A stretch of DNA of 49,220 nucleotides from positions 62,001-111,220 of the forward strand of contig MEDY01000045.1 in the NCBI GenBank assembly GCA_001724265.1. The letters run 5' to 3'. The notes beneath the pieces are model-generated. The model had not been told where the DNA came from, made no database searches, and saw only the letters and a program-made list of their open reading frames with translations. A program made the position numbers and the translations under genes. Of the stretch, positions 2,392-48,898 are shown piece by piece (within the stretch, counting starts at the first letter, position 1; the number at the start of each line of letters is the position of its first letter). The stretch is from Rhizaria sp. SCN 62-66 (lineage: Eukaryota).

Positions 2392-2803
2392 CGTGAGCAG
2401 CACGTTCGAAAATTGAGCCGAAGAGGCGGATGCAGACTTGACTCTGATTTGCTGGCTATCTCTTGCAGATGATCACCGTTTGAACTTTAGTTGTAATATT
2501 AGTATAATCACCTAGAGTTCTATTCCATAATTTTAAACTAATATTCATGAATGTAACCCGGTCGAGAACAACCAACCTCCAGAATTCAAACTGGCTGTTT
2601 CTCTCGGGTTGTGCGGGTTGCGAGATTTCCTTCTGCTACCACCGGTTGCCGCTTGTATCTGGTTATGCCATGCTATCTTTGCTATAAGCCGACAGCGGCA
2701 CATCTATGCGTCGTATTATCATGACGACTCACGATCAAGAACTTCTTCTACTTTTCTTTTTCCATCTTTGTCTCGCCCTCGACTCATCATTGCAGGAGGT
2801 TCC

Positions 2804-23800: not shown

Positions 23801-25880
23801 GCAGGCCGTGCAGCACGTCTTCCCCGTCGCCAACTGGCTCTCCGAGTACCAGTCCTTCAAGGTCCTCATCGACGTCTCTGTGCCACGCGGCGCGCTCCCA
23901 GTCGCCGCAGGCTCGCCCTCGGCGCTCCCGGCCTCGAGCAGCGGCTCCAGCGGCAGCGAGCGCCCCTCGCGCGCCTTCAACAGCAAGCTCGCCGAGCGCC
24001 GCGAGCGCACCACGCTCGACCGTTCCGCGTCCAACAACACGACTATCGTGGCGGGCTCCGGCGCCGGCTCTAACGGCAGCAGCTCCTCTGCGAGCGCTGG
24101 CGACGGCTCGAACCTCTGCGCGGCTTGCGGCAGCGACACGCCCCAGCAGTGCGGCTGTCCCGCGCCGCTCGCGGGCCAGGTCGCCGCCGCTCCCCCGTCG
24201 GCCGTCACGGCGTCGGTGGTGCCTGTGCAGCGCGCGGGCCCCGCGGCGACGGCGGACAACTTCGTCGACAGCGACATGATGCGCGCGCCCCGCCGCGGTG
24301 CGCTCACTGAAGGCGGCGGCTGGGCCTCGGGCCACGCCACCGACGGCACCTTCACGGCCTACGGCGCGTCCACGATCGACGTGCCGCCGCGTCTGGAGCG
24401 CTCGTACAAGCTCAACCTCTTCGCGCTGGTGCCCTCCGCGGTCGCCGGCGTCGCATCGGCGCGCGTGCGTGTGCGTTTCCTCAACGAGAAGACGCAGGAG
24501 TACGCCGACTACGTGTTCCTGGTTGCGCCCTCGACGCCCACGCTCTGTGCCGGCGTTGACGCGAGCGCCGTCTCGACCACCGCGGGCCCCATCACGGCCC
24601 CCGCGTCGGCATGGGCCGCGCCCGAGCTGCCGCTGCTCGCCACCGACGTGCGCCAGACTAAGACGCTGCGCCTGGCCTTTGCGAATCCGCTGCCGGACCG
24701 CGCGGTGACGCTGACTAAGCTCACCTGCTCGAACCCGGCCGTGTTCGCGGCCAATGCGGCCAACGTTGGCGCGCCCGTGTTCCCGCTCACTGTGCCCGCC
24801 AACGGCACCGTGACCGTGCCGGTGTGCTTCCGCCCGCTGATGCCTATCGCGCCCGCCGGGTCGGCCAAGGTACTGCTGACGCTGTCGACAGACACGATGG
24901 GCGACTTCACCTACACGCTCCCGCTGCAGTGCCCCAAGAACGCTGACAAGGACGTTGACCTTTCCGCGTGGTCTGTCGGCGCCGCCGGCGTCGTCCCACC
25001 CGAGATGCTCGCGCGCGCGGACGCCATGCTGCGCTTCGAGGCGCCGCTGGGCGAGAGCGTTGTCAAGTCGCACGTGTTCAAATCGCCCTGCACCGTCGCG
25101 ACGACGTACGACGTGTCGATTCTGCCTGTTTGCTCTGGCAAGGTCACTGCTGCCGCCTCCGAGGCCGCGGCCGCGTTTACCGTGTTTGACCCCGCCGCGC
25201 CGACCGTCGCGCTCACCAAGATCTCGGTCCCCGCCGCGGAGACGTCCATGTCGGGCGCCCCCGTGAGCGTGAACCTCCCGGTCTCGGTCCGGTTCGAGCC
25301 CTCCGTGGTCGGCGACGCGTCTGCAATCGTGATCCTCAACAGCCCTCAGGGCGGCGTGTTCATGTGCGCGCTCAACGCTACGGGCGCGGGCCCCAAGCCC
25401 CAGGGCCCGATCTCGCTGACGCCCGTCGCCACGCTCGCCGCGCAGGCTGGCGCCGCGGGCGGCAGCAGCAACAACGCGGCGCAGCAGGCCGCGCAGCAGC
25501 TGCTCGCGCTCGCCCTGCCGCCCACCGCGACCGCATTCACGTCGATCAAGTTTAAGAACGTGTTCAACGCCACGCACACCTTCTCCTTCGCGCTCGACGG
25601 CTCCACCGGCGGCACGCAGGCGTTCGTGATGAGCAAGCGCGCCGAGAAACTCCCCGCCAAGGGCGAGTCGGTCATCGCGGTCGGCTTCACGGGCCCCATC
25701 GCCTCCGCCGCCGCCGCTGCCGCCGCCGCTGCCGCCTCTGCGTCCACACCCGCCGCGGCTGGCGCGGAGAAGCAGCGGCTGAGCGGCGCTGCGGTGCTGA
25801 CGGCGAGCGCGAAGCTTACCGTCACGTGCATGGAGACTCAGCACGTCTGGACCTTCTTCCTGCAGGTGCCCCGCATCTAA
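2804..25880 (+). CDS. HYDIN: HYDIN, axonemal central-pair protein; exons 2804-2815 and 2919-25880, ~7657 aa
   Basis: Many ASH/Ig-like repeats (xDFGx...L.N....P..F...P..G.L.PG). Hydin-like blocks include YPVEIYSVETDRAYLEEEQIL, adenylate-kinase-like VVVGSPFSGQST...GIIIDG, TRWVVPA, FDFGSLLVGK, RPKCHVDLVSSDYL, LDPLTRVIE and C-terminal KLTVTC...WTFFL. The short first exon ATGTCATCGGGC splices in frame (2919 to 2970 is 17 codons). The 5' exon is less certain than the family call. Confidence 0.95.
2816..2918 (+). other. Spliceosomal intron, 103 nt, phase 0 (HYDIN)
   Basis: Donor GTACGTCT, branch-like CTCAC at 2880-2884, acceptor TGCATAG. AT-rich, and removal joins ATG 2804 to the long ORF. Confidence 0.8.
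2861..2873. promoter_or_regulatory. RFX X-box-like motif GTTTCCTAGCAAC in HYDIN intron 1
   Basis: Close match to the 13-bp imperfect palindrome GTTNCCTAGCAAC bound by RFX factors, 57 nt downstream of the proposed start of a ciliary gene. Confidence 0.45.
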
Positions 25881-26407
25881 GCTCACTCATTGGTTTATCC
25901 TTCTGAACGAAGAGTAACTGCAATCCATATTACCGTGTTTCATCTAGTTTATTCTAACAACCCTTTCTTTCTGTCGAATAGTCTCAAGCTACACTCCAAG
26001 CATTCTCAATAATATCAACCATAACACTACAAGTAGACTTCAATTTGTTGTTAAGCTTACACTGTACCACTCAAATACATAATATTACTTTTCATCATCG
26101 ACTGTATAATCTGTGTAGTATGATTTGTCTTTAATGTCTTTTGGAGTGTATTGTGCGTGTTTATATAAGTTTGGACGCGATAGATACATGGCCCTGTTAC
26201 GCCCCATTCGTACTAACTTGCACGCACGCGACACAAGCAAAATATACAGAAGACAGCGCTTAAAATAGTGTTAAAATAGATAACAAGACCATCAGCAACG
26301 AATACCACTTCCACAAAGAAACCTCGACAACAAAGCACAGCAAAAAAAAAGTGAAATACTCGGTGCTGTCGTGGTAGCGGCTGAATGTCATCGTCACCTC
26401 GTCCTGC

Positions 26408-27757
26408 TCACTTGGGGACGGCAAATGTCGGGAAGCCCTTCCACATATCTTCGAGATCCTCCTTCTCGAACATGGTGATGTCTTCGTTGTTGAGCTCGCG
26501 CCAGCGGTTCCACCACTGCATCGACGGCCGCATCGCAGGGTACGTGGCGCGGGGAAAGTTCTCGTACTGGTGGCCCAGCGTCAGCGATGCGCCCAGCCGC
26601 AGGTCCGCCGTCTCGGAGAGGTAGAAAGAGCTCACGCCCAGCGACGCATGCTGCACGGGGGCGTACTTGACCTCGCTGGTGTAGACGCCAGTGGAGGCCA
26701 CAGCCATCGCGATGGAGCCTTGGGGGGCTGTAAAGTTGAGCAAATAAATAAAGATACGAGCGTGAGTGCAGATCAAGTGCGGATTAAAGTAATCATGACG
26801 ATTAAAAAAATTACTAATATTATATGCGATAATAGGTATATGCGTAGACGTACTGGACCACTTGATGCCGGTCTTGGTGGCGGAGTCGAGCTGCCCGGCG
26901 CGCATGCCGACTGAGAACTCGCTCTCCCAAGTCAGCGCGTGGTTCACCCGCTTGTGATACACGACAGAGCAGTGGTCGTCGGCAACCTTAAGCAGCATGC
27001 CTTCGGCCTCCGGGATGGCGAGGATGTTGTCCAGGCCCTTGAAGCCGCGCGGGTCGCCCTCCTTATAGGCGCCCAGCGTTATCTCGGTGCGCGTGTGCGG
27101 GTGGCGCGTCGAGTTGTAGTCGGTCTTAGCGCCCATCATCCAGCCGGGCGCGAGGCGTTGCACGTACGACGCGGCGGCCGTAAGGCTCCCGCGCAGCTTG
27201 CCGCCAAAGCTAGCCGTGAAGCACGAGTCCGCGGTGATGTGCTCACCGGAGAAGCGCACGCGGTCCGGCGTCGAGTCGGCGGCGACGCTGAACTCGACCG
27301 CCGCGGCCGTCGCGGGGGTGATCTTGCCGCCGATCTCACCGGCGATGCGGCCATCGGGTGACGCGAGGGCGACCACGCGCTCAGCAGTGGATGTCTTGTG
27401 GACGCCGAGCGACATCTGCGCGCACTTGCCGGAGAGGCCGCCCATTTCGGCCTTGACGCCAGCGAAAGCGATCGTGTCGAGATCCTTCGAATCGGCGACC
27501 TCGATGGCGAAGCGCGCGCCCTCCCAAGACTGGTTCTGAATAAACGACGCAATAGGGCGGAACGCGTTGTCGTACTGCGGCGGCGCGGTGGGCGGCCCGC
27601 GCATCGGGGACAAGTCCTGAATCGCGCGGGCGCGGGCCATTCGAGCGCGGACTTGTTCGGGGTACGCGATGGCCTCTTCGTAGATGCGTTGGTACTCCTT
27701 CGCGTCCGCAATGGGGTCCATAAGAGGACGCCCCAAGGCGCTGCTGAGACTGCTCAT
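26408..27757 (-). CDS. TOM40: Divergent Tom40-like mitochondrial porin-family beta-barrel; exons 27757-26854 and 26727-26408, 407 aa (alternative ATG at 27721)
   Basis: Tom40-like blocks in the expected order: WEGARFAI, ASPDGRIAG, GEHITADS, ASYVQRLAPGWMMG, YHKRVN, TGIKWSTPQGSI..VASTGV, and the beta-signal RLGASLTL. Confidence 0.75.
   Translation of the reverse strand: MSSLSSALGRPLMDPIADAKEYQRIYEEAIAYPEQVRARMARARAIQDLSPMRGPPTAPPQYDNAFRPIASFIQNQSWEGARFAIEVADSKDLDTIAFAGVKAEMGGLSGKCAQMSLGVHKTSTAERVVALASPDGRIAGEIGGKITPATAAAVEFSVAADSTPDRVRFSGEHITADSCFTASFGGKLRGSLTAAASYVQRLAPGWMMGAKTDYNSTRHPHTRTEITLGAYKEGDPRGFKGLDNILAIPEAEGMLLKVADDHCSVVYHKRVNHALTWESEFSVGMRAGQLDSATKTGIKWSSTSTHIPIIAYNISNFFNRHDYFNPHLICTHARIFIYLLNFTAPQGSIAMAVASTGVYTSEVKYAPVQHASLGVSSFYLSETADLRLGASLTLGHQYENFPRATYPAMRPSMQWWNRWRELNNEDITMFEKEDLEDMWKGFPTFAVPK
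26728..26853 (-). other. Spliceosomal intron, 126 nt, phase 1, in frame and stop-free (Tom40-like)
   Basis: Abrupt AT-rich block within GC-rich CDS. Donor GTACGTCT, branch-like CTCAC at 26766-26762, acceptor TTTACAG. Splicing gives KWS-T-PQGSI. Confidence 0.9.
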
Positions 27758-27947
27758 GAGGGGCAAAGCGGGTGTGTCTGTGACGGTGAACCTGGGCGCG
27801 CTGGCGCGGTGGCGAGGCGCAAGGCCGAAGAGGAAGAGGGCGGAGGCGGGAGCGGGTAGGACCTAGGGCTGGACAGCACTGGAGCAACACACGCGCTCGT
27901 TAAAAGTTGTACGAGTCCAGCTTTGACCTTAAGGTCGGGTGCAGAAG

Positions 27948-28028
27948 CTAGGGTTGTAAGAATGAAGTGCAGGGATGAGAAGGCGGTTAGTCGGGAGGCG
28001 TTGTAAAACTTGACAGCGAACAGCGTAC
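27948..28028 (-). other. Probable 5'-UTR intron of the Tom40-like gene, 81 nt
   Basis: Donor GTACGCT, branch GACTAAC (CTAAC at 27990-27986), pyrimidine-rich tract, acceptor CCCTAG. Branch-to-AG spacing matches the coding introns. Confidence 0.55.
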
Positions 28029-28404
28029 GAAAAGAACTCGTAGCAAGTCAAGAAAGTGTATGTTTAAACTGTTTGTGAAAATAGTTGTTAGGATACAAAC
28101 GTGTAAATTCCTAGTGACAAACAGAATGCCTATACATAAAATGTATTTCGCGTGCAAAGGCCCCAATCATGAGCCCCGGAGTCCTGGGTTTGCTTCGCTT
28201 CTCGGCCGTCCTCTAGTGACTGTGGTCACTTGACTGGGCTTGACCACAAGCAGTTTCTATCAAGACAAAAGCAAGGATTCGACAAGGTGAATTAACTGAT
28301 ATGACGCTACGACTGTGGCGCTAGACCCAAAAAACACTCGAGTGTAATATATCAACGAGATATCTTTCATAGAACGTATATACCCTCGAAAGTCAGTCGC
28401 CATA

Positions 28405-29267
28405 TCAATTGGTCGATCCCGCCCCGCCCTCTGTACGTGGCAGCGCCGAGGCCGCCGCGGCGCCCGCAGCGCCCGCGGGCACCTGCGGGTACGCGGGGGG
28501 GTTGGGCGGCACGTACACGGCCGTCTTGAACCTGCGTGCAACGGTCATAGCCTCCTCGGGCGTCGCGTCGGCGCGGATGTTGAACAGCGACTGGATTTCG
28601 GCAGGCGTCTTCTGGTACATTTGCGAGGCGATGTGCGCGAGAATGAGGCCGCGGAGCGACGGAACCTCGTAGAAGTTCGCAATCTATGCAAAAGAAGCAA
28701 GTGGGCACACGTTAAAACCAGAGATGTTGATGAAGATGAGTTCTAGTGAAGCGATAGCAGATGAGACAAGCAAGAGGATGTCAGAGGTTGATGACAAGAA
28801 CTTGGTTTAGAGCGAGACAACTGTTGTGTGTTGCGTACCAAGAGGAGCTTAAAGAGCGTCTCCTGCGTGGTGTCAAGAAAAGCCCAGTCGAACTCGTCCA
28901 CGAGCGGCTGGAGCGAGTCGGTCGCGATGGGCTTGGGCAGCTCGCGCGGGGGCACCGTGGCGTGGTACTCGATGTACTCGAGGAATTTGACTGCGATGTC
29001 GGGGGAAACGTCCGGGAGCACATGCTCCTCGCTGTTTGGGTCTGTGGCAAGAATGAATTACGTCGTCAAGAAAAGAGGGTGAGACTGGGTGAGTGATGTG
29101 CTGCAAGCACAGAGAAACGGATTCGAAACTCAATAGGGTCAAGAAAGGACTGTGGACATACCAGAGTCAAGGGTTTGAGTCATGAGACCAGACAGGGAAG
29201 CGGCTTTGCGAGAAATCATGAAGCGCGTGCCGTCGGCGCCGACGAGGAAAAGCTGGTCCGAAGGCAT
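28405..29267 (-). CDS. SKP1: Skp1-like SCF adaptor; exons 29267-29162, 29041-28839 and 28683-28405, 195 aa
   Basis: Spliced product MPSDQLFLVGADGTRFMISRKAASLSGLMTQTLDSDPNSEEHVLPDVS..KFLEYIEYH..ELPKPI..EFDWAFLDTTQETLFKLLLIANFYEVPSL..IASQMYQKTPAEIQSLFNIRADATPEE fits the Skp1 POZ and dimerisation domains. An in-frame upstream ATG exists at 29336. Confidence 0.9.
28684..28838 (-). other. Spliceosomal intron, 155 nt, phase 0 (Skp1-like intron 2)
   Basis: Donor GTACGCAA, branch-like TTAAC at 28715-28711, acceptor TGCATAG. Joins LFKLLL|IANFY, equivalent to the Skp1 LILAANYL motif. Confidence 0.9.
29042..29161 (-). other. Spliceosomal intron, 120 nt, phase 1 (Skp1-like intron 1)
   Basis: Donor GTATGTCC, branch-like CTCAC at 29083-29079, acceptor CCACAG. 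Removal restores the Skp1 frame. Confidence 0.9.
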
Positions 29268-29521
29268 GGCCTTAAAGGGGCGAGGAGCAACTGGGTGCCT
29301 GGAGGTGGGGGAAGCGGTACGTGACTGCAGAGGCATATGGCATGAATAAAGTGATCGACAAAGATTTAATTAGCGCAGAATATAAAAAATGGTGCGTCTC
29401 CTATCGCGGAGAAATGAATAGGCTTCATGCCGGACTTTTGTGGAGATACAGGTTCTGGACAACATGAGTTTGAGACCTTGCTCACTTGCCAAAGGTTCAT
29501 GGCTGGTGAGGGGGGGTCGGC

Positions 29522-29565
29522 GACGAAGTTTGAGCACGGACCTCAGGGAAGCTCAAACTTCCGTC
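29522..29565. repeat. Inverted repeat in the Skp1/DEPDC5 divergent spacer
   Basis: GAAGTTTGAGC (29525-29535) and GCTCAAACTTC (29551-29561) are perfect reverse complements with a 15-nt spacer, extendable by GAC/GTC past a 1-nt bulge. Confidence 0.85.
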
Positions 29566-29653
29566 AATTGAAGTGCCACGCAATTTACTTATAGGTATAA
29601 GTATTTTCTAACTATCCTTTAATTTTCATTTCTACCTGTTTGGTTCGTAGCTC

Positions 29654-32600
29654 ATGGATCGTTCGCGCCTGGTGGCCTCTTCGCCTCCCGCAGCGCCGAC
29701 CGACGCCAGTCTCCCGGACAACTCCACATCCACCCAACCACCCACCAGTGGTCTCTTTACTGACCAACCTGCTATGATACCCACTATTGCTTCCGTTAAC
29801 GTTGCCCAGCGTCGTGATGGAGCAACTGTTGTGATCGGAGGGTCGGGCCCGTCGCGTCCTCTTGGCGCAGGTACGTCTGTCTGAAACTTACAACGGTCGA
29901 TATCCTTCATTATGTATCTCTCCATTGCATGACTCTAACGGGAGATCGTGGTTTTTGTGTGAATTTTTCTGTCTGTAGGCTTTGCTCGCGGCTTCCCCCG
30001 CCCCGCTCCGATCGCGACGTTCACCAACTCATCGCCCTCCGCCGCGCTGCTGCCGGCCGTCACCGTGCCCCCCTCCGCAGTCTCCGTCCCAGGCGGCGGC
30101 ACGATGTTGCCCGCGAGCGCCGCGCCCCACGGCGGGGCCCTGGGAGGCCCCCCGCTGCTTGCGCGCGCCGCGACCGTGACTCACTCGCACACGCACAGGC
30201 ACGTCATCACCGCGCCGAGCCCGTCTCAAAGCAGCGGCAGCAGCGCTAACGCCAACATCATCAGTGCATCCGCTGCGGCGCAGCACTACAGTCCCAGCCC
30301 CAGTGCGTCGCCCGCGCACTCGCCGCCGCGCTCCGGTGGCGCCGCGCCCGCGGCGATGATGGGTCCCGCCCGCCCCGACGCGGCTGCGGCCACCGCTGCC
30401 ACCGCTCCCGCCGCCGCCGCGACCAGTAGCAGTAGCAGTAGCAGCAGCAGCGGCGGCGGCAGTGCGGGCTACGGGGGGCGCCTTGGCCCGGCCCCCGGAG
30501 CGCTGCAGGCCGGCGGTGTGGGCACCGTGGGCGGCGGCGGCCTAACTTCCCCCGTGCTCGTCTCAGCCGTGGGCAGCGGTCTCGGCACCGCCGGCATGCA
30601 GACGCGCGTCGTGACGCTGTCGGCACAGGGCGGCGCTTACATGCGCCCGCTAACGACAGAACAGGGACCGCAACAGCAGCAGCAGCAGGCGTTCGGCGGC
30701 GCTCAGCGGGCCCCCGCGCCCGCGGCGCTGGGGGGCGGCGTGCGCGTGGTCGCGACGGCTGGCGCAGGGGCCAGCGCGGCGCCCTTCACGCAGCTGCTGA
30801 CGCGGGCGCAGCTCGGCGGCGGACTCCGGACCAACGCGATCGGCGGCGCGAACGTTGCCAGCGGAAGCATCGTTATGGGTAGCAATAGCAGCTACAGTAA
30901 CAATAGCGCGGGCAGTGGGTCTGCTGGCGGCGGGGGGAGGAGCGCGCTCAGAACCGGCGCTAGGGGCGCCGCGCCCGGAGCTGGCGCGCCGGGCCCCGGC
31001 CAGCTGCCGTCGTTCAAGTCGTCTCTGCACGCATACCGCGGCCCGTCGACGTCGTCGTTTCTGTCGGGCGCCGACGACGACGCCGACGGGCTGGACGCCA
31101 GCACCCCCTTAGTCGATGTAAGTGGCCCAGAAGCGGCCGCGAAGGCGAGCGCGGGTCTTAACATAAGCACGCATAACGAACTGGAAGAGGAGGAGGATGC
31201 GGATACAGATAGCGGAGCACGGCAGTTTGACTCTGCTGACGACGGCGACAGCGACGGCGACGGCGACGACCGCGATGCTGAGACCGACGACGACGGCGAC
31301 GACGGTGAGAGTGATCGCGACATGTACGACGATGAAAACGATAATGACGACGACAACGATGCCAAGCCATCTTCTGCCACGGTGAAGACGACGATCGCTG
31401 ACAGCAACAACAACGTGGATGCACATGCCGAGACAGTGGCCGAGACTGCGAGTGCCGGAGTCGCAGGCGCCGACGACGGCACTGAACCGGGGGCGCTGCT
31501 ATCACCACCCCACGGCGCGTATATCGATGGTGATGCGAATACTGCACAAATTACTGGGAGTGTTGCAACAGACGCGACGCCTGCAGCTGAAAATGCGGGC
31601 TCCATCGCAGACAGCGACATTGCGAACTCAGTCACACCGACGATTGAGACCGCGTCCCCGACTGGGACCACCTCGACCCCGCAGCTACAGCAGCAGCAGC
31701 CGGGGCCGCAGCAGCAGCCGGGGCCCGTGTCGTACTTCTCGATGCAGTCTGGCTTCGGCGCGCGCCGCCGGCCGGTCACGAAGCTGGGTCACCCATCGTC
31801 GTCCATCGTCGCCACGGTTGCCTCCACGGGCGGCCTAGCTTCGCCCGGCGGCGTCGCTTCCGTGGCAGGCGCGTCACCTGGCAGCGGCGCGGCCACCCCT
31901 GGGACTGCAGAAGCTGCTCGCACCCCCGGCACCGATCCAACGCAGCAGCAACAACCGCATCGGAGGCCGCCGCCGTCGCTTAAGTCCAAGGCGGGCTTCG
32001 CGTCGGGCGCCGCCGTAGTGACCATGAGCAGCGGCGTTGGCGCCCCTCTGCCGCCGCAGTCGACGACCCGCTCCGGCGCGCTTGCCAAGGGCGTGTCTGC
32101 GACTCCGGCAGCGGCGGACGACGGCTCCGGCGCCGGCGCCGGTGCTGCTGCTGCTGCTGCTGCGGCGGCGGCGGGGGCTTCGGGCGCTGCGAGCGGCCGC
32201 AGCGGCAAAGACGGCAGCTCCCGCGCCGGCCGCGGCGACCGCTCTAGCGACCGTGAGCAGCAGGCCGTGGCCACCGCTGCCGCCGCCGCAGCCGCCGCCG
32301 CCGCAGCCGCTGTTACGCCCGTGCTGGCCAACGCGAGCACGTTCGCCGCGCAGTGGGGGTACCCGCTGCAGTTCGCGTCGCCGCTGCTCCTGCAGGCCAC
32401 GTTCGACCGGTTCGCGGCCGCGGCAACGGCCACGACGGCGCTGGCCACTGTTGCCACGGAGTCCGCAAATGGTGCCGTCACAGACCATCTCAATGTTGGC
32501 GCGGTTGACTATGCGTTTCCAGCGACACCATTGACGCCCCGCCGCGCCGGCAGCGCTGCGAGTGCTAGCGCGAGTGCTAGAGTCGGCGTCAGCGTGGCTG

Positions 32601-35600
32601 ATCCTGTAATCCCAGCCTCTCTGTACCCGCTGCTACTCACCATGCCAACGCCAGTGCTTACGCTACCTCCTGGCACCACTCTCAGCAACACCACAGGCCC
32701 TAACGCGGCTGGCAGCGGCGTCGCCCCGGCCGCGAGCCCCGGCGCCCACGGTCCCTCCCGCACGCTGCCGCTGCCCCTCGCCCCGGCGCCGGTCCCGGGC
32801 TCCGCCGCGGCCGCCGACGCGCGCCGCCGCGCCCGTGCGCACGCCGCGGCCGCCGTGTTCGCGCACAGCCGCGGCGACGCGGCGGCCGACATCGTGCTGG
32901 GCCCCGCGCTGGCGGGCATGCTCATGGTCGGTGACGTCATCCGGCTCCAGCGCAGGCCCCCGGACTACACCAAAGTCAAGTCGCAGCGGCTTAACTTGCG
33001 CAACAAGCTGGTTGGCGAGCGCTCAAACAGCGTCAGCGGTTCCGGCGTTCCCGCTGCACTGGCGGCGGTGAGCGTGACCGGCGTCCACGGGCTCGACGAC
33101 AGCGACGCCGACGACGACGAGGGCGACGGCGACGACAGCTCGGCCAACGCCGCGTCCGGCAGAGGCGGCTTTGCTCGCACCGCCCTCGACCGCGAGCAGC
33201 GCGCGGCGCGGCGCCACACGCGCGCGCTGCCGCCGCTGTACACAGGCCCCGACTGCCTGGACGTCCAGATCACCCCGGCGTCCTTCACAGCGCCGCCCGC
33301 GGTGACGGCCGCCGCGGCCGCGATGGGCGGTGCCGTCGCGGCCGGAGCGTGGATCAGTGTTTGCGCGACATTGTACCGGCCGGTGTGGCACCAAGACGCT
33401 GCCGATAGTGACTGCGACGGCGACAGCGACGGTGAGCTCGAGCAGGAGCATGAATGTGCGTCTAAGCAAGCATCCGCAGACGGTGACAGCGCTCCGATCA
33501 CCGAGACCGCGATGGCGGCCGCGGCAGCGCGCGCTCTGGCGCAGGCCCCCGCAGCGCCCGTGCCGCTGTCGCGCGTGGCGCTGACGGCGCCGTGCTCTTG
33601 GCCCCACAGCCACACCGCGGCCGCGGCCGCCGCGCACGGCTACCCGACGCAGAGCCACCCCGCGAATGCTGGAGCTCCCGGCTTGGCAGAGGGCGCGCAA
33701 CAGCAGCAGCATCAGCCACAACAGCAAGGCGATGTTTACGACAGCGTTGGCACCTCTGCGACCGCAGCTGCGTCCACTGCGGACGACAAGAGCAATACTA
33801 GTACCGCCGCGAATGTAAGTGGGCCCGTAGGCGAGCTCATGGCCGCGGCGAGCCTGTTCCCGCCCCGCACCACTACCGAGCGCGCGTGCCCCTTCTTTTC
33901 CGTCCTGGCGGGCGCGCGGCACGTCGCGGCGATTGCGGGCGACGGCGCCGCGGCGGCCGCGCTCTCGACCTCGGCGCTGCCTCTGTTCACGGCCGCGATC
34001 GCCGGCGTTGCAGCCCGCGACAGAGCTGGCGATGGCGCGGAGACGCGCGCGGCGGTCACGGATGCACTGAACCATGTGTTTGCTGCGACGGTAAGCAACC
34101 GCAGCCGCAGCCGCCACAACGGACACGGATGCGTGCACTGCGGCAGCGGCAGCGCGCTTGCGACCGCGGCAGCAATGCAGACTCGCATGGTAGCTTGCCT
34201 GGGGCCGTTCATCCCGCCCGCGGTACCTGTGCCTGCGCCCTTTGACATCGGCGCTGGCGCTTCGTCTCAGAGTGTGTTGGGGGCGGCCGAATGGAGCGGC
34301 ATCGGCAAGCAGGACGCGTGGTGCGTTGCCGGTGTCGGCCTCGTACCTAAATCCGTGTGTGTGCCGGAGAAGGCGCAGATTGTGTCGACTCCGTTCCGTC
34401 CGCAACCCTTGCAGTCGCAGAGCGATGTCAGCGACGCCGCGCAAGCAGAGCAGTCACCGTTTTCGTTTAACTACGCGTTCAAGCCCCTGGCAGCGTTGTC
34501 TAAGGGAACGCTTGCATCGTTAGAGTCACTGACTCGTCCGGACATCGCTAATTTCTTCACAGAGAGTACTACAAGAGACACTACTATGAACACGCCCAAT
34601 ATGTATCTCAAGACCCCATCGACGAAGTCTTACTTTAGCACGCCAGCAAAGTCTCCCACCTCCGGCGCCTTGCCTTACGACGAGCCCAAGTGCCCCGCGC
34701 TCGCGTTCCCGCCCCTGGTGGCCGGCATCACCGCGCTCAACGCCGCGACCGCCGTGCCAGTGCTGTTTCTGACCCGGCTGACGGCGACGGACGAAGACAC
34801 CACCGCCGCGGCCCAGTTCCTCGAGCTCTCGATCCGCGGCCAGCACGTCGGCCGCGCGGACATGCTCGCCACGGCTGCGGCGCTGCGGCGCATCCTGGTC
34901 CGCGACCGGCAGTCGATCGCCTCTGGCCCCACGGTGTACCGCGTGCACAAGTCACGGCTCCCGCTGACCGCGCTCGCGCCTAGGGACCGCGTCGGCGCCG
35001 CAGCGTGGCTGCGCGCGGCCGCCGCGAGGAGGCGGCTGCGCAAACTAACAGCGGCAGACGCGACCAGCCACGAGATCTGTGCGTGCGTTGGCGATGCTGC
35101 GGCGCCCCGTGTACAGACGAAGAAGGTTGCGGTACGCGGTGGCGTCAGCGTCAGGTACGACCCCGAGTCTGACTCCAATACGAGCAGTGTTGAAGATTCT
35201 GACTCCGATGCTGTCTCCGAAACCGATGATGTGACTTCTGGCAAGGAGAAAGGCGCTGTTAAGCCTGCGGGTAGTTCTGACGCTGATGCGGAGGCTGCTG
35301 CTAACAAGCAGGCCGTGGCTGCATTCGCCAATCACCATGCTGACTTCCACATCACCCAGGACAATGTCGTTGCAGTGGCTGCCGTCCAAGGTAGTGAGCC
35401 TGGGCCGGACGGCGACAGCGCTGTTGTCATCCCAGCAATTTCGGGCCTCCACTTCCGCGATAGAACACCCCTGCACAGCCTAGGCGCCCCCAGAGCCGGC
35501 GCACCAAGCGGGGCGATCACGAGCAATATCAGCGGCTCTGGCGCTGGCGCTGGCACTGGTATTAATGTCGTGAGGGGTCCTGGTATGGGACTTAAGAGCG

Positions 35601-38600
35601 GCGCTCTGCTGCGTGGCGGGCCATTGGGCAGTCGCTTCCACGCGCTCCCCCGCGGCAATGCGTACGTAGACAGTGCGAACAGTGGGGCGAAACAGGATTC
35701 GGTGAGTACTCAGCAAGCAACGTCTGGTACCCTCGAAGAGATCACGCCTTTACCTGCAGGCTACCCCTTGGCATCCAAGACACCCGCTCAAGACGCAAGC
35801 AGTACCAGCGCTAGCGTCAACTCCAAAGGCATGGATGGTGCAAACGCGAAGTCTAAGAGTGGCAAATCCAAGAAATCAAGCAAAACCGCGAAGCGCCAAG
35901 CTGTCTCATCGAACTCTATCAGTGTTGCCGCAAGCACTCGCTCTTGCCCTCCCTGCTTATCGTGCTACTTGGCCGTCCACGCCCCCCTACCGCCCCCCGG
36001 CACCCACGACCCCTGGGACGCCTCGCGCCTCGGCGCGGCGCTCTTGGCCTACCTCGCTGAATACGGCGCCGCCGCGGAGACCGGGGGCACGGCGGTGTAC
36101 CACGGCGACGAGCACGCGGGCGCGACAGACAGCTTCACGGGGTTCGCCTCCGCGGTGCGGTCGCTGCCGCAGCTGACTGAGGCGATCGAGGCGGCGGTGG
36201 CCGCGGTGACGTGGACGCCGCACCTTCCTTTGCATGTGCCCGGGAGCCAATCCTGTGTCATTAGCAATGGCAACGCACTCAGTCAGTCGTCTCATAGTGG
36301 GGCTGATAGCGCTACCGCTGGCGTTGCTGGAATGGTGGCAGGGCTGGTTGAAGAGGCCTGGCTGCGGCATTCTAGGCCATTACACGCGACCCCTTACACG
36401 ACGCCGGACGCGCTCGCTCTGCTGTTTCGTCTGTCAAACCGCGAAGCTAGCATGGCAGGCACGTCCGACACCAACAGCATGCGTCGCCGTGGTGCTCGGC
36501 GTCAGCCTCGTCGGCACTCAAGCAGAGCTGGACACAGTGCAAATGCGACTGCCAGTGACTGCGAGACCAACGCAGAAGACTTGTTTGATGACGAGTGGGG
36601 GGTCGACGGCGGACTCTCTCATGTTCCGCCACTGGTGCGGCCGCTTTACACCCGCGTTCGCGTTGCTGCCGCCCCTGCTCCGACATCAACTCACACTGGG
36701 GCAGCAACATCGCAAGCGACAGCCTCAGCAACGGGTGCTTCGTCGGGAGTCATCGACTACTCATCGAGTGCGGCAGCTGCCGGTGCTGCTGCTGCGGCGG
36801 CCGCCTCGACTGTCTTGTCCGCTTCACATCATCATCATCAGCAATATCAGATGCAGTCGTCGCAGGCGCAACTGCATGGCGCATCTGATGTTAACTCCGT
36901 CAGCACGAACTTAGGCGCCGGGCACCCGGTTTACTCGAGCTCGTTTGCCTCCTCGGGCGGCAACTCTTCTGGTTCGGTCAGTGGTAGCGTTAAACACCAG
37001 AGTAAACAACGCTCGGGTCTCTTTTTTGGTCCTGGCAAGTCCACATCGACTCCGCTCATGGGCCCTGCTGTCGCGCCTCTTTCGACGTCACACAGCTACG
37101 GCATCGTGTCTGCAAACACGAGTACTACGGGCAGCTCGAACAGCAACGCTGTGAACAACGTGTTGGCGACAGGGTATAGCCCTGCTCTTGGTCCGAGCGC
37201 GTCTCCCATGCTGCAGGCAAACCAGACCGCGGCGCCCGGAAGTTTGGCCGCACTGGGTCTCCTCGTAGGTTCGCCGCATTTCGGCTCACTCAACCCAGAA
37301 AACAACAACGGTAGTAGTTCAAACGCAACTGCAATCGGTAACACGAGCCACACCACCGCTGCGAGTTCACTCCATCCGACCAGCGGATTGCCTGCGACCG
37401 GCAGCAGTGTCGGCTACGGTCCTGAACGTGGTCGGTACAGTGTAATGTCGAACTCTGTGAACGTGAATGCTCACCAAAGCATGGGCACGGGTGGCAATTT
37501 CCCTTCGAGTGTCAGTGCAGTTATTGGTGGAGGTAGCAACGCCAACAGCACAACAGCTGGTTTGTGGGCCGCGCACACGGTCGACTCTCCCGCGTTGAAC
37601 TACATGACGTCCCCCTTACAGTCGCACTTACACACGCAAGGCGGCGCTCGCTCTGGCGTCACTGACTCACCCTTCACTGGCAGCGGTTTGGCAAACAGTC
37701 AAGGCACCCCGTCGGTGCACACTCCCAGTGGCGCTGCAGGAGTGTTTCCTCCTGCGTTCGCTCTGTCAGGCGGCTTCTCGCCCGCACCCCCATCGTTCTC
37801 GCTCGCTGGCGGACCCAGCACCGGCGGGAACAACACGCCGAACCCTTACAACGTCCCGGGCACTTACAATTATAGCCACAGCATGAACAGTCCTTACACG
37901 CCGAGCTACAACTCTCCTGCTTCGATAAGCTCCGGTGGACAAAGCCACTTACTCCAGCAAGGGCCGAACTTACTCAACTCCAACGCGACCGGAACCCCTT
38001 ATGGCGTTTCCACGCCCACTGCTGCTGCAATTGCGCATAGCTTCGGTGCCATTCATGGTCCCTTCCACACTCTCGGCCACAGCCATGCGCTCGGTCAAGG
38101 CCATCACGGTCCGCACGCCCACAACAGCAGCGGCCACGAAGGCGCGACTCCGACGGCATCCGCTGTGAAGACCACGGTTACCACGGGGCAGACCAACGGC
38201 GTCGCTACGACCACGACCACGATTACGGCCCCGACGGCCGCGACCGCGGCCGCGGCCGAGTCCGCGCCGGCACCGCGACCGTCGCTGCGCCGCCGCCTAG
38301 ACGCACTTTTCTCGGTCCTGCTTCCGTCGTCACGCGTGACGCGCGCGCCGCTGGTGCCGCCGCCGTCGACGCACGCGAGTACGGCGCTGGTGACCGACAG
38401 CACGCGTTTCGTGTTCCGCTCACGGTCCTGCGTCGTCACCATGTTCGTCGTCATGTCGCCGGAGATGTGGTCGCCGCGCGCGCGCGGCGGCGGCCGCACG
38501 CTCGACTCAGCGCTCGAGGTGCTCGCGCATACGGTGAGGCAGTGGATCCGGTTCAATGCGACGCACAAGCTAACTTTAGTGTTGTGTTCACGCTCGTTTG

Positions 38601-41600
38601 TTGATGTCACTAAGACAGCAAACAATGGCGCAGCAACGTCGTCTTCGGCACCGTCCTCTTCACTCTCGTCGTTGGTGTTCCAGCACCTAAACCAGCTCCC
38701 TGCCTCGGCCCCCGTTCCCGGCTCCGTTCCACTCGACGGTGTCATCTCTGTCGATGCCTTCGGCCGATGCTACCAGGACCACTACACTGTGGCGATCTCC
38801 GGCGACGCCGTGGTGCACAGGGACCCCCGGCGGCTGCTGGCGCGCGTGCGGCCCATCATGGTCCTCTACGGGCAGCTGCTGGGGTGGACGCAGGCCCGCT
38901 TGCCCGGCACACTTTACCCACAACAGCCTGCCAAGACAGCGTCACATTTGGCGACCGCATCGCGTGTGGGCAAGGCTGGCAAGCACGAGCAGCAGCAAGA
39001 CAGCCACGACCTATCGGACATGAAGCTTGATACCTGCGGCGACCTCGTGATCTCGCGCACTGCGGCGTCGGCCCCACACTCGTGCCTGCTCGAGGCCGTC
39101 AACCTTGGCCTCTCGCTTACGGAGCTGCACGGCACGGACCGCGACCTGACCAAGTCCGGCCACCAGCTCGTCGTCGTCACCGCGGGCACGGGCCTCACCG
39201 TGGCGCCGCTTTCGCTCCTGCGCCTTACGCGCCGCCGCGTCGCAGAGGTCGGCGTCGGAGTCGACGTCATCGCACTCGCGCCGCCGCCCTTGCACCCGGC
39301 ACCCCTGGTCGCGCACATCCTCGCCGCTGAGGCGGAGCGCGTGCAGGCCTGCGGCATCGACCCGTTCTTCCGGTCCTCCGCCGAAGTCAAGTCGTATCAG
39401 GCTGAAGCTAAGCCGCCGGCCGACCTCTCGTGCGATCGCAGCGCGGTCAGTAAGAGAGTCAAGCCGCTGGCCGTCTCTCTGCTGGCGACGCCCCCGCCGC
39501 TGCACGCGCTCTCGCCGCTGCCGCGCCCGCGGCCGACCGCGGCCGCCGGCGTAGTGTACTCATCGCCGCACTGGCTCGTGACCACCTTCGCCGGCGCGGC
39601 CCCGCCCCGCGGCGCCGTCGGGCTCGGCAGCGGCGTCGGCACGGCGGGCGCGGGCGTTGGCGCCGGCGGCGACGGCGGCGTGCAGTACCCCGCCAGCATT
39701 GCCGGCGGCGGCGCGACGGCCGGCGCGGCGGCCGGTGGAGGCCCGGGGTCCAGTGCCGGCGGCGGCGCGGGCGCTGGTGGCAGCGTCGGGCCTGTGGGCG
39801 GCAGTGGCGGCGCAGAGGCCAGCGGCTTGACGTCGTTCATTGCAAGTCTCGCGCCTGCTGCGGCGCCCGCGCTCGTGGCCGCGGCTGCGCGCTGGGCTGC
39901 GCTGGCGTCGCGCGCGCCAGTAGACTCATCTAGTGTTGCAAGCTCGGCCTCGAATAGCACTGGCACAGCTGTCGGCGGTGTCAATACACCGATCGGACTG
40001 GTTAACTACTTGGCGACGTTGTCGGCTGCTGCCTCGTTCTACCAGGGCCACAGCAACACCAGTCGTGACCGCGGCAGCAGCGCGCTGCTGTCTGCGATCA
40101 CAACCATCGCGAACGCAGCGGCGGCAGCAGCGGTTGCGCCGGTGGCTGTGAAGCGTGACCCCTTGGACGGACGCCCTTACATTCTTGCGTTATGCCCCGA
40201 CGGGGCCTCGAAGGGCATCTTGAGTAGCAAGACCGTTGGTACAACCAGCGCAACTGCGAACGGTACGAGTGGTGGACTCCGTCGTGTGTACGTATCTGAG
40301 TCCGCCGTCACCACATCGGTTGACGGCAAGTCTGAATCGATTGCAGCGGCGAGCACGACCTTCAGCAAGCCCGACGCCAACAACAGCACATCGCCCGTGA
40401 CTGTGAGTGTGGTTGCTGAAGGCGGTGTCCGTGTGACTGTTACGCTTCCGCCTACGTGTCTCGAGCACAGCGCAAGCAATAACAACATTAACGCACTCAC
40501 AGCCGCAACCTTGTCCGCATCTGCGAGTAGCAGCGCTGGCTCAGGCGCGAGCACAAACGCAGCAACGGCAGCCTCTGCTGGTGGCTTCTATGTCTCATCG
40601 ACAGGTGTTCGTGTCTATAAAACGGCCTCTTCGACGGACAACGCCGCTGACGCCGCCGTCGCCTCAGTCGCCGCATCAGCCGCGACAATCAGCGCTTACG
40701 CCACTTCTGCCGCAACGGCGCTTGGTGGGCTCACCCTTGCACCCGTTGTGAGTAATTCGTACGGCTTTGTTGCAGCCGCGGCCGCCGCACAGGCAGCGCA
40801 GGCGGCCGGACTCGTCACGCGCACCGCGCCCCCGGCGGCCACCGTCGCCGCGGTCGCCGCGGAGACTGCGCGCGAGCGGGAGAAGAAGGACGAGAACGAG
40901 CGGTGCGCCGACGAGCGGGAGCAGGAGCGCGAGGAAGACATTCTGGCGCTGGCGGTTGGCAGCGAGTACGTGAGCGCCAACTGGGGCGGGTTTGATGTCT
41001 GCGCAGTGAATGCGGCTGTATACGCGTCTGCGCCTGATGTTGACGCAACTGCATATGGTCATCCCAACGCGTTTTCAGATTCGGATGCTGAGTCTGGCTC
41101 TGATAATGAGCAAATCAACGGCGACAATGATGAGCGCAAGCTTGACATCGGCGTAAACAGCAACGACCAGGCTGGTAATGCAAAAAACGTTGCTGCTGCG
41201 ACAACACCGAGTAAATCAACTACCGCTGCGAGCGCACCCGTGGTCAACGTCGCTGCTGTCGCGCTGAGCGCTGTGGCGCCCCGTGTCAGCACACTTGGCG
41301 CTTACATTCCGCCTATGCCGCCCATGGTCTCCGCACTCAACATGACGTACGACACGTTTTGTATCACCGGAGGGAGTAGCGGCTACAGTGCAGTCGGTGG
41401 GTCTGAGACTGGCTCGTTGTTTGGTGATAGGTTTGGCAACGACGACACAGTCTGTGACTTGACTGATTTGGCTCGCGAAATCTCGCCCGGTTACGCTGCT
41501 CTTGTTGGCACTTGTCAAACACAGAACATGAACACAGAAAGCAATAACATTGCGCCATCACTCCTTGGGGCTGTTGATGGCGCCGTGGACGAAGAGACCA

Positions 41601-47600: not shown

Positions 47601-48898
47601 TTCCGCTGACGTCCCCTCAGTTTGCGACTCACGCGAACCGTGGTCGAAGTCTCAGTGGAGACCAGCTGCAGCAGGCCGAGGTGGCGACCCCGACGGATGT
47701 AAGCACTCCCGTGGGAGCGCACAACTCATCGAGTGTAAGCGCAATCAACTTGCAATCACCGCGGCCCCCACGCTCGCAATCACGCTATAACACAACTAAC
47801 ACGCACACGAGCGCCTCGACTCTTTTGGACACTAGCTCTCAATCGCAGCTGCAAGTGACTGCAAACACCACCGTTACAGTCGCACACTCTCTCTCCGGTG
47901 CGCTGCCTGCAGCCAACACCATGCGTCTCGGCTTCGGCCTGCGTCCGGATGTCCCGTCGTCCTCGCTGCGCCTCACCTTACGCCACCCGTCGACATCGAC
48001 GTCAACGACCCACGCGTCCACCGTTACCGCGGGTGAAAATGCTGACAGCGCTAGCAGCGGAGGCAACAATAGTGCTGTTTTTTCGTTTGGCGCCACTGCA
48101 GCGTCGGGTTCTGGCGCTTATGCCTACGGCGCTGAGGCTGCTGGTGGACTGGATGACCGCGGCAACCGCGTGCTGCAGTCGCACGATAAGCGCGTTGAGT
48201 GGGTCAACTTGTCGTATGATGGCGTTATTCACCCTTACACAGCGGTGTACTTAGAAGTGCAGTGGCTTTCTGCTGCAGGACCGACGATTGAGGAGCTGGT
48301 CAAGGTGCTCACGCGCAAGTCCAAGGCGTTGAGTGTGGTGCTTGTAAGGGTGCCTGCGCTGCAGCCTAACGCGGACGTCAGTGACCCACTGGCGCCGCAA
48401 CCGTTAACACTACCGCTGTCGCAAACTACAGACCTCACTGTCGCCGGCGTGCAGTCGTTCGCGGCTAGCTCAGTTGGCGCCGACAGCAACGGCGTCAGCG
48501 TCCTGCTTGAGTGCACTGGCAAGCGCGCCGCGCTCCTGCGTTGGCTACTCTCTGACGGAGGCTTTGTCCCTGATGCTGCGCCGCGCACGCCCTCGGTTCC
48601 CGGCGTAGCCACGCCTTCCGCGGCGGCCGCCACTGCCGTTGCCGCGGCGTCTGTTGCGGCCGGCACGACCGCAGGTGCTGGCGTGTTGTGCCAGGTCGTG
48701 CACAAGTCGGGCATCGCGGTGGTGCGTGTCACGCCCACGCAGGTTGTTTGGGTGCCCAACACGCTCGATGGCGCGTACGTTCAGGGCCATAATGGCGGTG
48801 TGCAGCTATTCAGGCGGTTCTTGCGGCAGTGGGAGCTGCTGGGGGAGTCTGTGACGGAGGACGAGCAGGAGGCATTGCTCGCAGAGACGCGACAGTAA
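29654..48898 (+). CDS. DEPDC5: DEPDC5/Iml1 GATOR1 (SEACIT) subunit; exons 29654-29870 and 29979-48898, ~6378 aa
   Basis: Family blocks in order. NTD: DIVLGP..MVGDVIRL and LELSIRGQHVGRADM. SABA: TRFVFRSRSC..MSPEMW, THKLTLVLCSRSF, GRCYQDHY, LLEAVNL..DRDLTKSGHQLVVVTAGTG, GVGVDVIALAPPPLHPAPL, PHWL. SHEN: WQTLSMPALMPL, ELVFQRQTQQFQLV, NWSHQDRLVSG. CTD: EWVNLSYD..LEVQWLSA and VHKSG. Exon 1 splices in frame to the 30065 ORF. Confidence 0.92.
29871..29978 (+). other. Spliceosomal intron, 108 nt, phase 1 (DEPDC5)
   Basis: CAG|GTACGTCT donor, CTAAC at 29935-29939, acceptor TCTGTAG. Contains an in-frame TGA at 29882-29884. Confidence 0.9.
32144..32173 (+). repeat. Coding triplet repeat (GCT)6(GCG)4 encoding Ala10; one example of many poly-Ala/Ser/Gln tracts in HYDIN and DEPDC5
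   Basis: Read directly from the sequence. Confidence 0.9.
45806..45883 (+). repeat. Coding 21-nt (heptapeptide) tandem repeat GTYTSPA-GTYASPA-GTYTSPG-GAYTS
   Basis: About 3.7 copies; amino acids conserved while third codon positions differ. Confidence 0.85.

Follow-up and report, generated by a model that had tools for sequence, protein, structure and literature searches.

Acceptor-like sequences upstream of start codons in Rhizaria sp. SCN 62-66 and a tentative promoter reading

Acceptor-like sites and introns of the locus

The window, i.e., the whole stretch of DNA analysed here (49,220 nt), contains a DEPDC5/Iml1-like, a HYDIN, a GPR107-like, a Skp1-like, and a Tom40-like gene. An original prediction, made from the sequence, described a structure resembling a 3' splice site upstream of all five start codons, mostly lacking a consensus donor, and raised the possibility of spliced-leader (SL) trans-splicing. 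When compared with the sequence, its coordinates and motifs proved correct at all five sites, which are given below together with the first coding exon of the DEPDC5/Iml1-like gene.

29608-29612, plus strand: branch-point-like CTAAC of the DEPDC5/Iml1-like gene, 39 nt upstream of the AG (29650)
29613-29650, plus strand: claimed acceptor of the DEPDC5/Iml1-like gene, a pyrimidine-rich AG-free tract ending in TAG, 3 nt before the ATG at 29654
29654-29870, plus strand: first coding exon of the DEPDC5/Iml1-like gene, followed by an intron (29871-29978); the open reading frame reaches 48898
2728-2795, plus strand: upstream site of HYDIN, with CTCAC (2728-2732) and a pyrimidine tract closed by TTGCAG at 2795; the ATG (2804) follows after 8 nt
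2170-2218, minus strand: upstream site of the GPR107-like gene, with CTCAC (2218-2214) and a CTGCAG whose last base is 2170; the ATG (2146) follows after 23 nt
29325-29373, minus strand: upstream site of the Skp1-like gene, with CTAAT (29373-29369) and a CTGCAG whose last base is 29325; the ATG (29267) follows after 57 nt
28069-28091, minus strand: claimed site of the Tom40-like gene, with CTAAC (28091-28087) and ACAG ending at 28069; weak

The AG-free run was 47 nt long in the DEPDC5/Iml1-like gene, itself a giant, 54 nt in HYDIN (pyrimidine rich), and 71 nt in the Skp1-like gene, and the GPR107-like site terminated an AG-free run of 145 nt. At the claimed Tom40-like site, the tract was A-rich and only ∼19 nt separated the branch-like motif from the AG. 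Three genes had further AGs nearer to the start codon than the AG claimed as acceptor. TGCAG was common to three of the sites and occurred in 12 copies per 6324 intergenic positions. A single strain variant, at 29327, changes the Skp1-like CAG to TAG.

The coding introns and one candidate intron in a 5' untranslated region (UTR) were as follows.

2816-2918, plus strand: HYDIN coding intron (GTACGT...CTCAC...ATAG), predicted from signals and reading frame
29871-29978, plus strand: DEPDC5-like coding intron (GTACGT...CTAAC...GTAG), predicted; contigs of sequencing runs X1 and X3 (see below) are unspliced across it
26728-26853, minus strand: Tom40-like coding intron (GTACGT...CTCAC...ACAG), predicted
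29042-29161, minus strand: Skp1-like intron 1 (GTATGT...ACAG), confirmed by a splice joint of run X2 (29041>29162)
28684-28838, minus strand: Skp1-like intron 2 (GTACGC...ATAG), confirmed by a splice joint of run X2 (28683>28839)
27948-28028, minus strand: candidate 5'-UTR intron of the Tom40-like gene (81 nt), with a GTACGC donor and CTAAC 39 nt before TAG; consensus signals only

As had been claimed, all five coding introns used GTAYGY donors (GTACGT three times, GTATGT, and GTACGC). Including the Tom40 candidate, all six good introns had a G at position 5 (G5), and four shared GTAYGTC. The true introns ranged in size from 103 to 155 nt, and in four of five the best CTNAY was found 35 to 40 nt before the AG. 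The likeness in branch-to-AG spacing between claimed sites and true introns was borne out, with 39, 45, and 45 nt in three genes versus 35 to 40 nt. The few introns of this locus were 5'-proximal and carried strong signals.

Enrichment of the pattern, cis donors, and RNA contigs

For an objective evaluation, we used a detector requiring a branch-like CTNAY followed by a pyrimidine tract free of AG and closed by YAG. It recovered four of the five claimed sites as well as four of the five true intron acceptors. Thus, acceptor-like structure was upheld ahead of four start codons; the Tom40-like site, for which the detector made no call, was weak. The detector also gave eight other matches in 3774 nt of non-coding DNA (both strands), of which four fell in 3' flanks on the sense strand, and fired inside introns. 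Dinucleotide shuffling yielded p values of 0.005, 0.31, 0.17, 0.037, and 0.12 for the individual genes; their combination (Fisher p 0.0025) was carried by two genes. Four matches in 5 x 60 nt corresponded to a Poisson p of 0.0004 against all non-coding DNA and of 0.017 against sense 3' flanks. Because of these shuffle and Poisson values, we consider the acceptor-like pattern real and somewhat above chance, though not strong, in four of the five genes rather than in all five.

Among control regions of other non-coding DNA, the share of anchor points with an AG-free run of at least 47 nt ending within 60 nt varied from 0 to 57%, and it was about one-quarter to one-third in most sense-strand regions. 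The sense strand of non-coding DNA was generally pyrimidine rich here (0.51 to 0.67). In both divergent spacers, the strand bearing the tract followed the orientation of the gene.

The original prediction had further stated that the claimed acceptors have no suitably placed GTAYGY partner, and this was corroborated: across the five upstream regions, no donor of the host's own consensus lay at intron distance from the claimed AGs, and only GTATCT, GTATTT, and GTATAA, all without G5, were present at 49 to 155 nt. Consensus donors were 258 to 660 nt away or as close as 35 nt. GTAYGY occurred at 8 in 6324 intergenic positions, by hand estimate about one per 650-nt spacer and strand. The far consensus donors at 2135 (plus strand, for HYDIN), 2819 (minus strand, for the GPR107-like gene), and 29317 (plus strand, for the DEPDC5-like gene) were rejected as chance occurrences, since their use would need transcription starts inside the neighbouring gene and about one GTAYGY is expected anyway. 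The candidate donors lacking G5 were the following.

2655-2660, plus strand: HYDIN candidate donor GTATCT, 140 nt before the AG at 2795
29444-29449, minus strand: Skp1 candidate donor GTATCT, 124 nt before the AG at 29325
2312-2325, minus strand: two GPR107 candidate donors GTATTT, starting at 2325 and 2317, 155 and ∼148 nt before the AG at 2170

Acceptors without a cis donor ahead of start codons were thus found, from sequence alone, in four of five genes. As predicted features, they are a necessary but insufficient sign of SL trans-splicing, because the same detector gives the eight further non-coding matches.

Contigs of four sequencing runs were compared over 25700-31700, a range that includes the sites at 28069, 29325, and 29650. 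X2, a cDNA run, was the only one with spliced contigs, and its Skp1 contig stopped 20 nt into exon 1, short of the 5' end. Contigs of X1, a poly(A) metatranscriptome, and of X3 ran colinearly over the sites, yet were also unspliced at good coding introns. X1 covered 25907-26085, 27419-28087, 29327-29573, 29775-30090, and some later pieces; we take it to be DNA-like or unprocessed, because spacers and one intron are covered and the Skp1 exons are not. Its contig 27786-28087 extends only 18 nt beyond the Tom40 AG at 28069, less than the 31-nt threshold. Contig ends and stretches lacking coverage were given no weight. Since these colinear contigs are DNA-like and unspliced at good introns too, they refute nothing. 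X4 provided next to no coverage of the stretch.

No splice joint ending at 28069, 29325, or 29650 was present in the four runs, where the covering runs are those unspliced at good coding introns. Likewise, none of the contigs listed carried a shared leader or a loose end at these three positions; all spliced contigs ended short of a 5' end. An X2 joint at 26527>27365, skipping 837 nt within the Tom40-like gene, was set aside as non-canonical (CC..GC). At the gathering threshold, Rfam returned no match, and hence no described SL RNA family, in the 49-kb window.

In HYDIN and in the Skp1-like and GPR107-like genes, upstream ATGs were concentrated immediately ahead of the claimed acceptors, with none following. 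In HYDIN, 2588-2654 was free of ATGs and 2655-2795 contained four. Judged from the sequence, this clustering would fit removal by splicing and a nearby transcription start equally. The leader of the Tom40-like gene is 380 nt long, free of ATGs, and contains the candidate cis intron with consensus signals.

Proposed promoter-proximal pyrimidine tracts

A third reading, a TATA-like box, pyrimidine tract, and initiator without any splicing, was absent from the original prediction. We tentatively favour it: the tracts may be promoter-proximal pyrimidine-rich sequence, comprising the core promoter and a short 5' leader, and not acceptors. Each gene would have its own promoter inside a short AT-rich spacer, in which a TATA-like box would be followed by a pyrimidine-rich sense strand, with transcription starting within or just after the tract. 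The combination of branch motif, tract, and AG would then be a look-alike arising from tract composition. CTNAY pentamers would be common inside such a tract, and, since it is AG-poor by composition, the first purine-rich stretch would tend to supply the YAG. An acceptor-like sequence before a start codon alone is weak evidence of splicing, because a pyrimidine-rich core promoter gives the same picture, and an ordinary promoter layout explains the tracts at least as well as splicing does. Both the start positions and the lack of splicing at these AGs we infer from the sequence.

Core promoters were searched in the sense upstream regions as TATA[AT][AGT] located 28 to 36 nt ahead of YYANWYY, in line with the general initiator consensus and TATA spacing. 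TATA-initiator pairs were detected in two of the five sense regions (DEPDC5, 29596>29628; Skp1, 29384>29352) and in none of the five antisense controls. The level of two genes was reached by 9 of 2000 mononucleotide shuffles. The elements of these pairs, an inverted repeat, and copies of TCAAACT are as follows.

29596-29601, plus strand: TATA-like TATAAG of the DEPDC5-like gene, 58 nt before the ATG, overlapping the weak donor GTATAA at 29595-29600
29626-29632, plus strand: initiator-like TCATTTC of the DEPDC5-like gene, with its A at 29628, 32 nt downstream of where TATAAG begins
29346-29384, minus strand: TATATT of the Skp1-like gene from 29384, with the A of initiator-like TCACTTT 32 nt further on (29352), both within the tract
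29525-29535 and 29551-29561, no strand: arms of a perfect 11-nt inverted repeat midway in the divergent spacer between the Skp1 and DEPDC5 genes, with TCAAACT on each strand
29467-29473, minus strand: a further sense-oriented TCAAACT
2586-2592, plus strand: TCAAACT of HYDIN, a candidate promoter element, sense-oriented and 212 nt before the ATG

If transcription started at the predicted initiators, the branch-like CTAAC of the DEPDC5-like gene and CTAAT of the Skp1-like gene would remain untranscribed; the DEPDC5 start at 29628 would yield a 26-nt leader without CTAAC. The TATAAG hexamer recurs in HYDIN at 2683, without an initiator-like motif at 28 to 36 nt from it. In the 200 nt upstream of the GPR107-like and Tom40-like genes, no TATA-like box was present. 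Four of the window's seven copies of TCAAACT fell within 1043 nt (binomial p 7e-6), and sense-oriented copies were present in each divergent spacer, which points to separate promoters for each gene.

Several observations count against the promoter reading. The spacing resembles that of true introns, the enrichment holds even against sense 3' flanks, and two upstream ATGs (29343 and 29336) would stay in the leader if Skp1 transcription began at 29352 as predicted. The missing consensus donor in cis, with G5 in all six good introns, would count in its favour.

Comparable promoters have been described in fungi. In the Aspergillus xylP promoter, a TATAAG 34 bp before the start and the intervening pyrimidine-rich stretch were both needed for promoter activity, and in A. 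nidulans an excess of pyrimidines immediately ahead of start sites is reported (PMC9703631). In the basidiomycete yeast Cutaneotrichosporon, CT-rich motifs precede transcription initiation (PMC10506223). If the tracts here are promoter sequence, the gene architecture would be ordinary, and their use would be limited to annotating start sites in this lineage.

Splicing alternatives and comparison with known systems

A different explanation holds that the sites are true outron acceptors, with an SL RNA encoded elsewhere supplying the GTAYGY donor and a short capped leader and each gene retaining its promoter, as in cryptomonads. We regard this as unlikely. The enriched branch-like motif, AG-free tract, and YAG at most 60 nt from the ATG in four of five genes would agree with it, as would upstream ATGs that precede and never follow these AGs and the lack of a consensus donor in cis at intron distance, even though the good introns all use GTAYGY. 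Against it stand the absence of a shared leader or loose end among the contigs listed from the four runs, whose spliced members all end short of a 5' end, and that of an SL RNA family in the window, as reported above. Furthermore, the TATA-to-initiator spacing in two genes would place the start downstream of the branch motif, and the HYDIN acceptor would leave a 20-nt exon ahead of the donor at 2816. At the Tom40-like gene, the site is weak, and the ATG-free leader with its consensus cis intron is found instead.

Relatives could contribute little. Word searches with the Tom40-like and GPR107-like proteins found none beyond the window's own proteins, and a contig-scan match of 23 residues was spurious. 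A protein atlas search returned mixed taxa, and the PDB matches to HYDIN favoured no single lineage. For HYDIN, a single relative was found on one metagenome contig (40 to 42% identity). This locus bears the signature at one of four gene starts, which also speaks against trans-splicing, but at ∼40% HYDIN identity it is too distant to weigh much.

To our knowledge, only a minority of eukaryote lineages use SL trans-splicing. The host would have to be a deeply divergent flagellate in which most of the genes, monocistronic and poor in introns, are trans-spliced at acceptors 3 to 57 nt before the start codon, as a further independent origin, which we consider improbable. Such acceptors would add a new lineage, intron-poor, GC-rich, and apparently operon-free, to the scattered distribution of SL trans-splicing, and would bear on why it keeps evolving.

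Equally doubtful, in our view, are cis-spliced 5'-UTR introns with relaxed GTATYT donors lacking G5. Transcription would start further upstream, perhaps at the initiator-like TCAAACT, and exon 1 would be short and non-coding. GTAT[CT]T is located 124 to 155 nt before the AG in three of five genes (HYDIN, 2655; Skp1, 29449; GPR107, 2317/2325), distances within or just past the true intron sizes, and the intergenic rate gives a probability of 0.017 for three or more of five. The Skp1 candidate donor, GTATCTCCACA, matches the donor region of the true intron 1 of the same gene at 10 of 11 positions (by eye). The ATG distribution in HYDIN, which changes at the candidate donor, sense-oriented TCAAACT upstream of each candidate donor, the position of introns near gene 5' ends, and the likely UTR intron of the Tom40-like gene are likewise favourable. 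However, all six good donors have G5, four of them within GTAYGTC, and intron-poor yeasts tolerate loss of G5 poorly. The motif class was chosen post hoc, and the placement was not significant when the class was widened to GTAY[ACT]Y (p 0.063). Moreover, the DEPDC5 candidate intron would be merely ∼50 to 55 nt long, the GPR107 and Skp1 candidate first exons contain ATGs, and spliced contigs supporting such introns were absent from the four runs over 25700-31700.

Pure coincidence, by which AT-rich spacer composition and the reader's flexible choice of motifs would have produced sites of no function, is very improbable: only two of five genes were individually below 0.05 against shuffles, detector matches elsewhere were many, and motifs were accepted loosely (CTAAC, CTCAC, GCTAAT) at AG-to-ATG distances of 3 to 311 nt with nearer AGs skipped, but the combined tests hold at p 0.0004 to 0.017 and the tracts switch strand with gene orientation in both divergent spacers.

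Among known systems, the cryptomonad Guillardia theta is similar in that its SL trans-splicing is documented without operons (PMC5619915), and the genes here are apparently monocistronic. With SL organisms in general (Euglenozoa, dinoflagellates, nematodes, and cryptomonads), the locus shares a branch-like motif, tract, and AG before the ATG and the lack of a consensus cis donor. Unlike in these organisms, no leader, SL RNA gene, or trans-spliced read was seen in the window and the four contig runs, and one of the five sites is weak. Intron-poor genomes such as that of budding yeast offer a second comparison through their 5'-UTR introns. There is likeness in the few, 5'-proximal introns with strong signals and in the Tom40 candidate 28028>27948, which has the full consensus; in contrast, the claimed acceptors would need donors lacking G5, seen in none of the six good introns. 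The fungal core promoter differs in that two genes here are without a TATA-like box, and starts here are predicted only. Its likeness to the promoter reading favoured here lies in the same TATAAG hexamer at a spacing near that of xylP (PMC9703631), under fungal rules that may not be those of the host, and in a TATAAG followed by a pyrimidine-rich strand, resembling the CT-rich sequence before initiation in Cutaneotrichosporon (PMC10506223).

Gene content and coding introns

The window proved to be 49 kb of eukaryotic DNA with a coding GC content of ~70% and short, AT-richer spacers. It contains five genes:

644-2146, minus: GPR107/CAND-like gene
ATG at 2804, plus: HYDIN, intron 2816-2918, open reading frame (ORF) to 25880 (~7,600 aa)
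26408-27757, minus: Porin_3/Tom40-like gene (weak assignment), intron 26853>26728
ATG at 29267, minus: Skp1-like gene (likeness by eye), introns 29161>29042 and 28838>28684
ATG at 29654, plus: giant Iml1/DEPDC5-like gene, intron 29871-29978, ORF to 48898

The Tom40-like porin assignment scored 16.3 bits in Pfam, below the cut-off of 28.4, and for the Skp1-like gene Pfam gave no match for the single exon scanned. HYDIN (2970-25880) and the Iml1/DEPDC5-like gene (30104-48898) both much exceed their usual homologues in length. The ORF of the latter encodes >6,260 aa, with Pfam matches confined to its later parts. HYDIN (~7,600 aa versus 7,510 aa in its one relative) had this single relative at 40 to 42% identity, after which the score fell sharply, and a word-indexed search of 5.8 billion proteins returned only the window's own entries for the Tom40-like and GPR107-like proteins. 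Judging from these searches, sequenced close kin of the organism seem to be absent. If HYDIN starts at ATG 2804, its first coding exon comprises just 12 nt before a consensus intron; the database model of the protein begins at ATG 2970.

As predicted, all five coding introns have GTAYGY donors (GTACGT in three, GTATGT and GTACGC). CTNAY lies 35 to 40 nt ahead of the YAG in four of them; in Skp1 intron 2 the nearest copy is 53 nt away. Both Skp1 introns were borne out by spliced contigs of run X2 (joints 28683>28839 and 29041>29162).

Acceptor-like sites upstream of the start codons

The original prediction described 3'-splice-site-like structures upstream of all five start codons, with coordinates that were all correct when compared with the sequence:

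2170, minus: GPR107-like
2795, plus: HYDIN
28069, minus: Tom40-like
29325, minus: Skp1-like
29650, plus: DEPDC5/Iml1-like

We used a detector that required YAG after at least 30 AG-free nt, CTNAY 18 to 70 nt upstream, and a 20-nt stretch, ending 3 nt ahead of the G of the AG, with a pyrimidine content of at least 65%. It yielded 17 matches in 3774 nt of non-coding DNA (both strands), recovering four of the five true acceptors, the acceptor of a candidate Tom40 UTR intron (27948), and the sites at 2170, 2795, 29325 and 29650. Tom40 28069 was missed. The overall observation was thus confirmed in part: four of the five genes, rather than all, do have the acceptor-like structure. The detector is also unspecific, since the remaining eight matches fell in sense 3' flanks (four), within introns (three) and at 2468.

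We measured the longest stretch without AG leading up to an AG at most 60 nt from the ATG; dinucleotide shuffles of 300-nt upstream regions gave P values of 0.005 (GPR107), 0.31 (HYDIN), 0.17 (Tom40, for another AG than the claimed one), 0.037 (Skp1) and 0.12 (DEPDC5), with a combined Fisher P of 0.0025. In control regions from other non-coding DNA of the window, runs of at least 47 nt occurred at 0 to 57% of anchor points per region (about one-quarter to one-third in most sense-strand regions), runs of at least 54 nt at 0 to 24%, and runs of at least 71 nt at few. Four detector matches in 5 × 60 nt corresponded to a Poisson P of 0.0004 against all non-coding DNA and of 0.017 against sense-strand 3' flanks. 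The enrichment is modest and carried mainly by the minus-strand gene in each of the two divergent pairs. Pure coincidence appears very unlikely. In the sole related locus, a metagenome contig of different composition (~55% GC), one of four gene starts had the detector signature (HYDIN, at 9958); this contig is too distant for much weight either way.

Donor candidates and RNA contigs

Consistent with the prediction, no GTAYGY was found at intron distance from the claimed AGs, the best candidates being too far or too close:

2135, plus: too far (660 nt)
2819, minus: too far (649 nt)
29317, plus: too far (333 nt)
29392, plus: GTGCGT, too far (258 nt)
2205, minus: too close (35 nt from AG)

By hand estimate, about one GTAYGY is expected per spacer and strand (intergenic rate, 8 in 6324 positions). 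Spliced-leader trans-splicing, for which no such partner would be needed, we consider unlikely; trans-splicing without operons is described in cryptomonads (PMC5619915), so gene order is no bar to it here. It is likewise doubtful that some genes have cis 5'-UTR introns with GT donors lacking G at position 5. GTAT[CT]T does occur 124 to 155 nt upstream of the AG in three genes, a spacing within or slightly beyond the size range of the true introns. At intergenic frequencies, the probability of at least three of five genes is 0.017 for this motif class, which was picked after seeing the data, and 0.063 when the class is widened to GTAY[ACT]Y. Past the end of the GPR107-like gene, its 3' flank (1-643, minus) is GT-rich on the sense strand and has no ORF. 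It carries GTAYGY at 168, 360, 379 and 406 and detector matches at 566 and 437, reflecting either composition alone or untranslated 3' introns.

Four sequencing runs aligned to 25700-31700, which spans three of the five claimed sites (28069, 29325 and 29650), were all read as contigs. Run X3 was colinear across the Tom40, Skp1 and DEPDC5 introns and hence behaves as DNA. A contig of X1, a poly(A) metatranscriptome, was unspliced over the good DEPDC5 intron (29775-30090, with >90 nt to either side of it), so that the colinear X1 contigs at 27786-28087 and 29327-29573 carry no weight as a refutation. Run X2 represents true cDNA, but its contig stops 20 nt into Skp1 exon 1. Among the rows listed for the contig runs, none had loose ends at 28069, 29325 or 29650. 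The RNA contigs provided neither the support named in the original prediction, a shared leader, nor its named refutation.

Another X2 joint, 26527>27365 within the Tom40-like gene, skips 837 nt with non-canonical ends (CC..GC) and is probably an artefact or derived from another template. X3 strain variants clustered in the Skp1 leader (29261, 29285, 29298, 29305 and 29327, the last of which turns the minus-strand CAG into TAG and so retains YAG). None was listed within 29328-29390, where the TATA-like box and the branch-like motif of the Skp1 tract lie; beyond it, variants resume at 29391 and 29435.

Promoter-like elements

We tentatively favor promoter-proximal pyrimidine tracts without splicing, at somewhat less than an even chance. 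In DEPDC5, TATAAG (29596) lies 32 nt upstream of the A in TCATTTC (29628), and in Skp1, TATATT (29384) lies 32 nt upstream of the A in TCACTTT (29352). Searched with a general initiator consensus and the usual TATA distance, such pairs occurred in two of five sense and none of five antisense regions, and two genes with a pair were reached in 9 of 2000 shuffles. TATAAG of HYDIN (2683) had no matching initiator-like motif. Transcription would start at 29628 and 29352, downstream of CTAAC and CTAAT, and would not include these motifs; the promoter and splicing readings are therefore mutually exclusive at these two genes.

Against an expectation of 2.25, the window has seven copies of TCAAACT. The two divergent spacers account for four, all of which face their respective downstream genes:

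2586-2592, plus: TCAAACT
29467-29473, minus: TCAAACT
29525-29561: two copies, which make up a perfect inverted repeat (11-nt arms, 15 nt apart)

TCAAACT may serve as a promoter or initiator element, and its sense orientation in both spacers fits a promoter of its own for each gene. By eye, the related contig has similar AATTCAAC / GAAATTTGAA repeats at ~3320-3357 and 9870-9920.

Several points speak against the promoter reading. As predicted, three genes have a branch-to-AG spacing (39, 45 and 45 nt) that resembles the one in most true introns. Upstream ATGs lie shortly before the claimed AGs, never after (HYDIN, four in 2665-2721; Skp1, 29343 and 29336; GPR107, 2203), and the TATA-predicted Skp1 start retains two of them in the leader. 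Tom40 is unlike the others in that 380 nt upstream are free of ATG and this leader holds a candidate intron with consensus signals (28028>27948).

Promoter-proximal pyrimidine tracts have parallels in fungi. CT-rich motifs precede initiation in a basidiomycete yeast (PMC10506223). In Aspergillus, promoter activity required TATAAG and the pyrimidine stretch (PMC9703631), and its layout, in which TATA is followed by a pyrimidine-rich stretch and then by the start site, is the one that we propose here.
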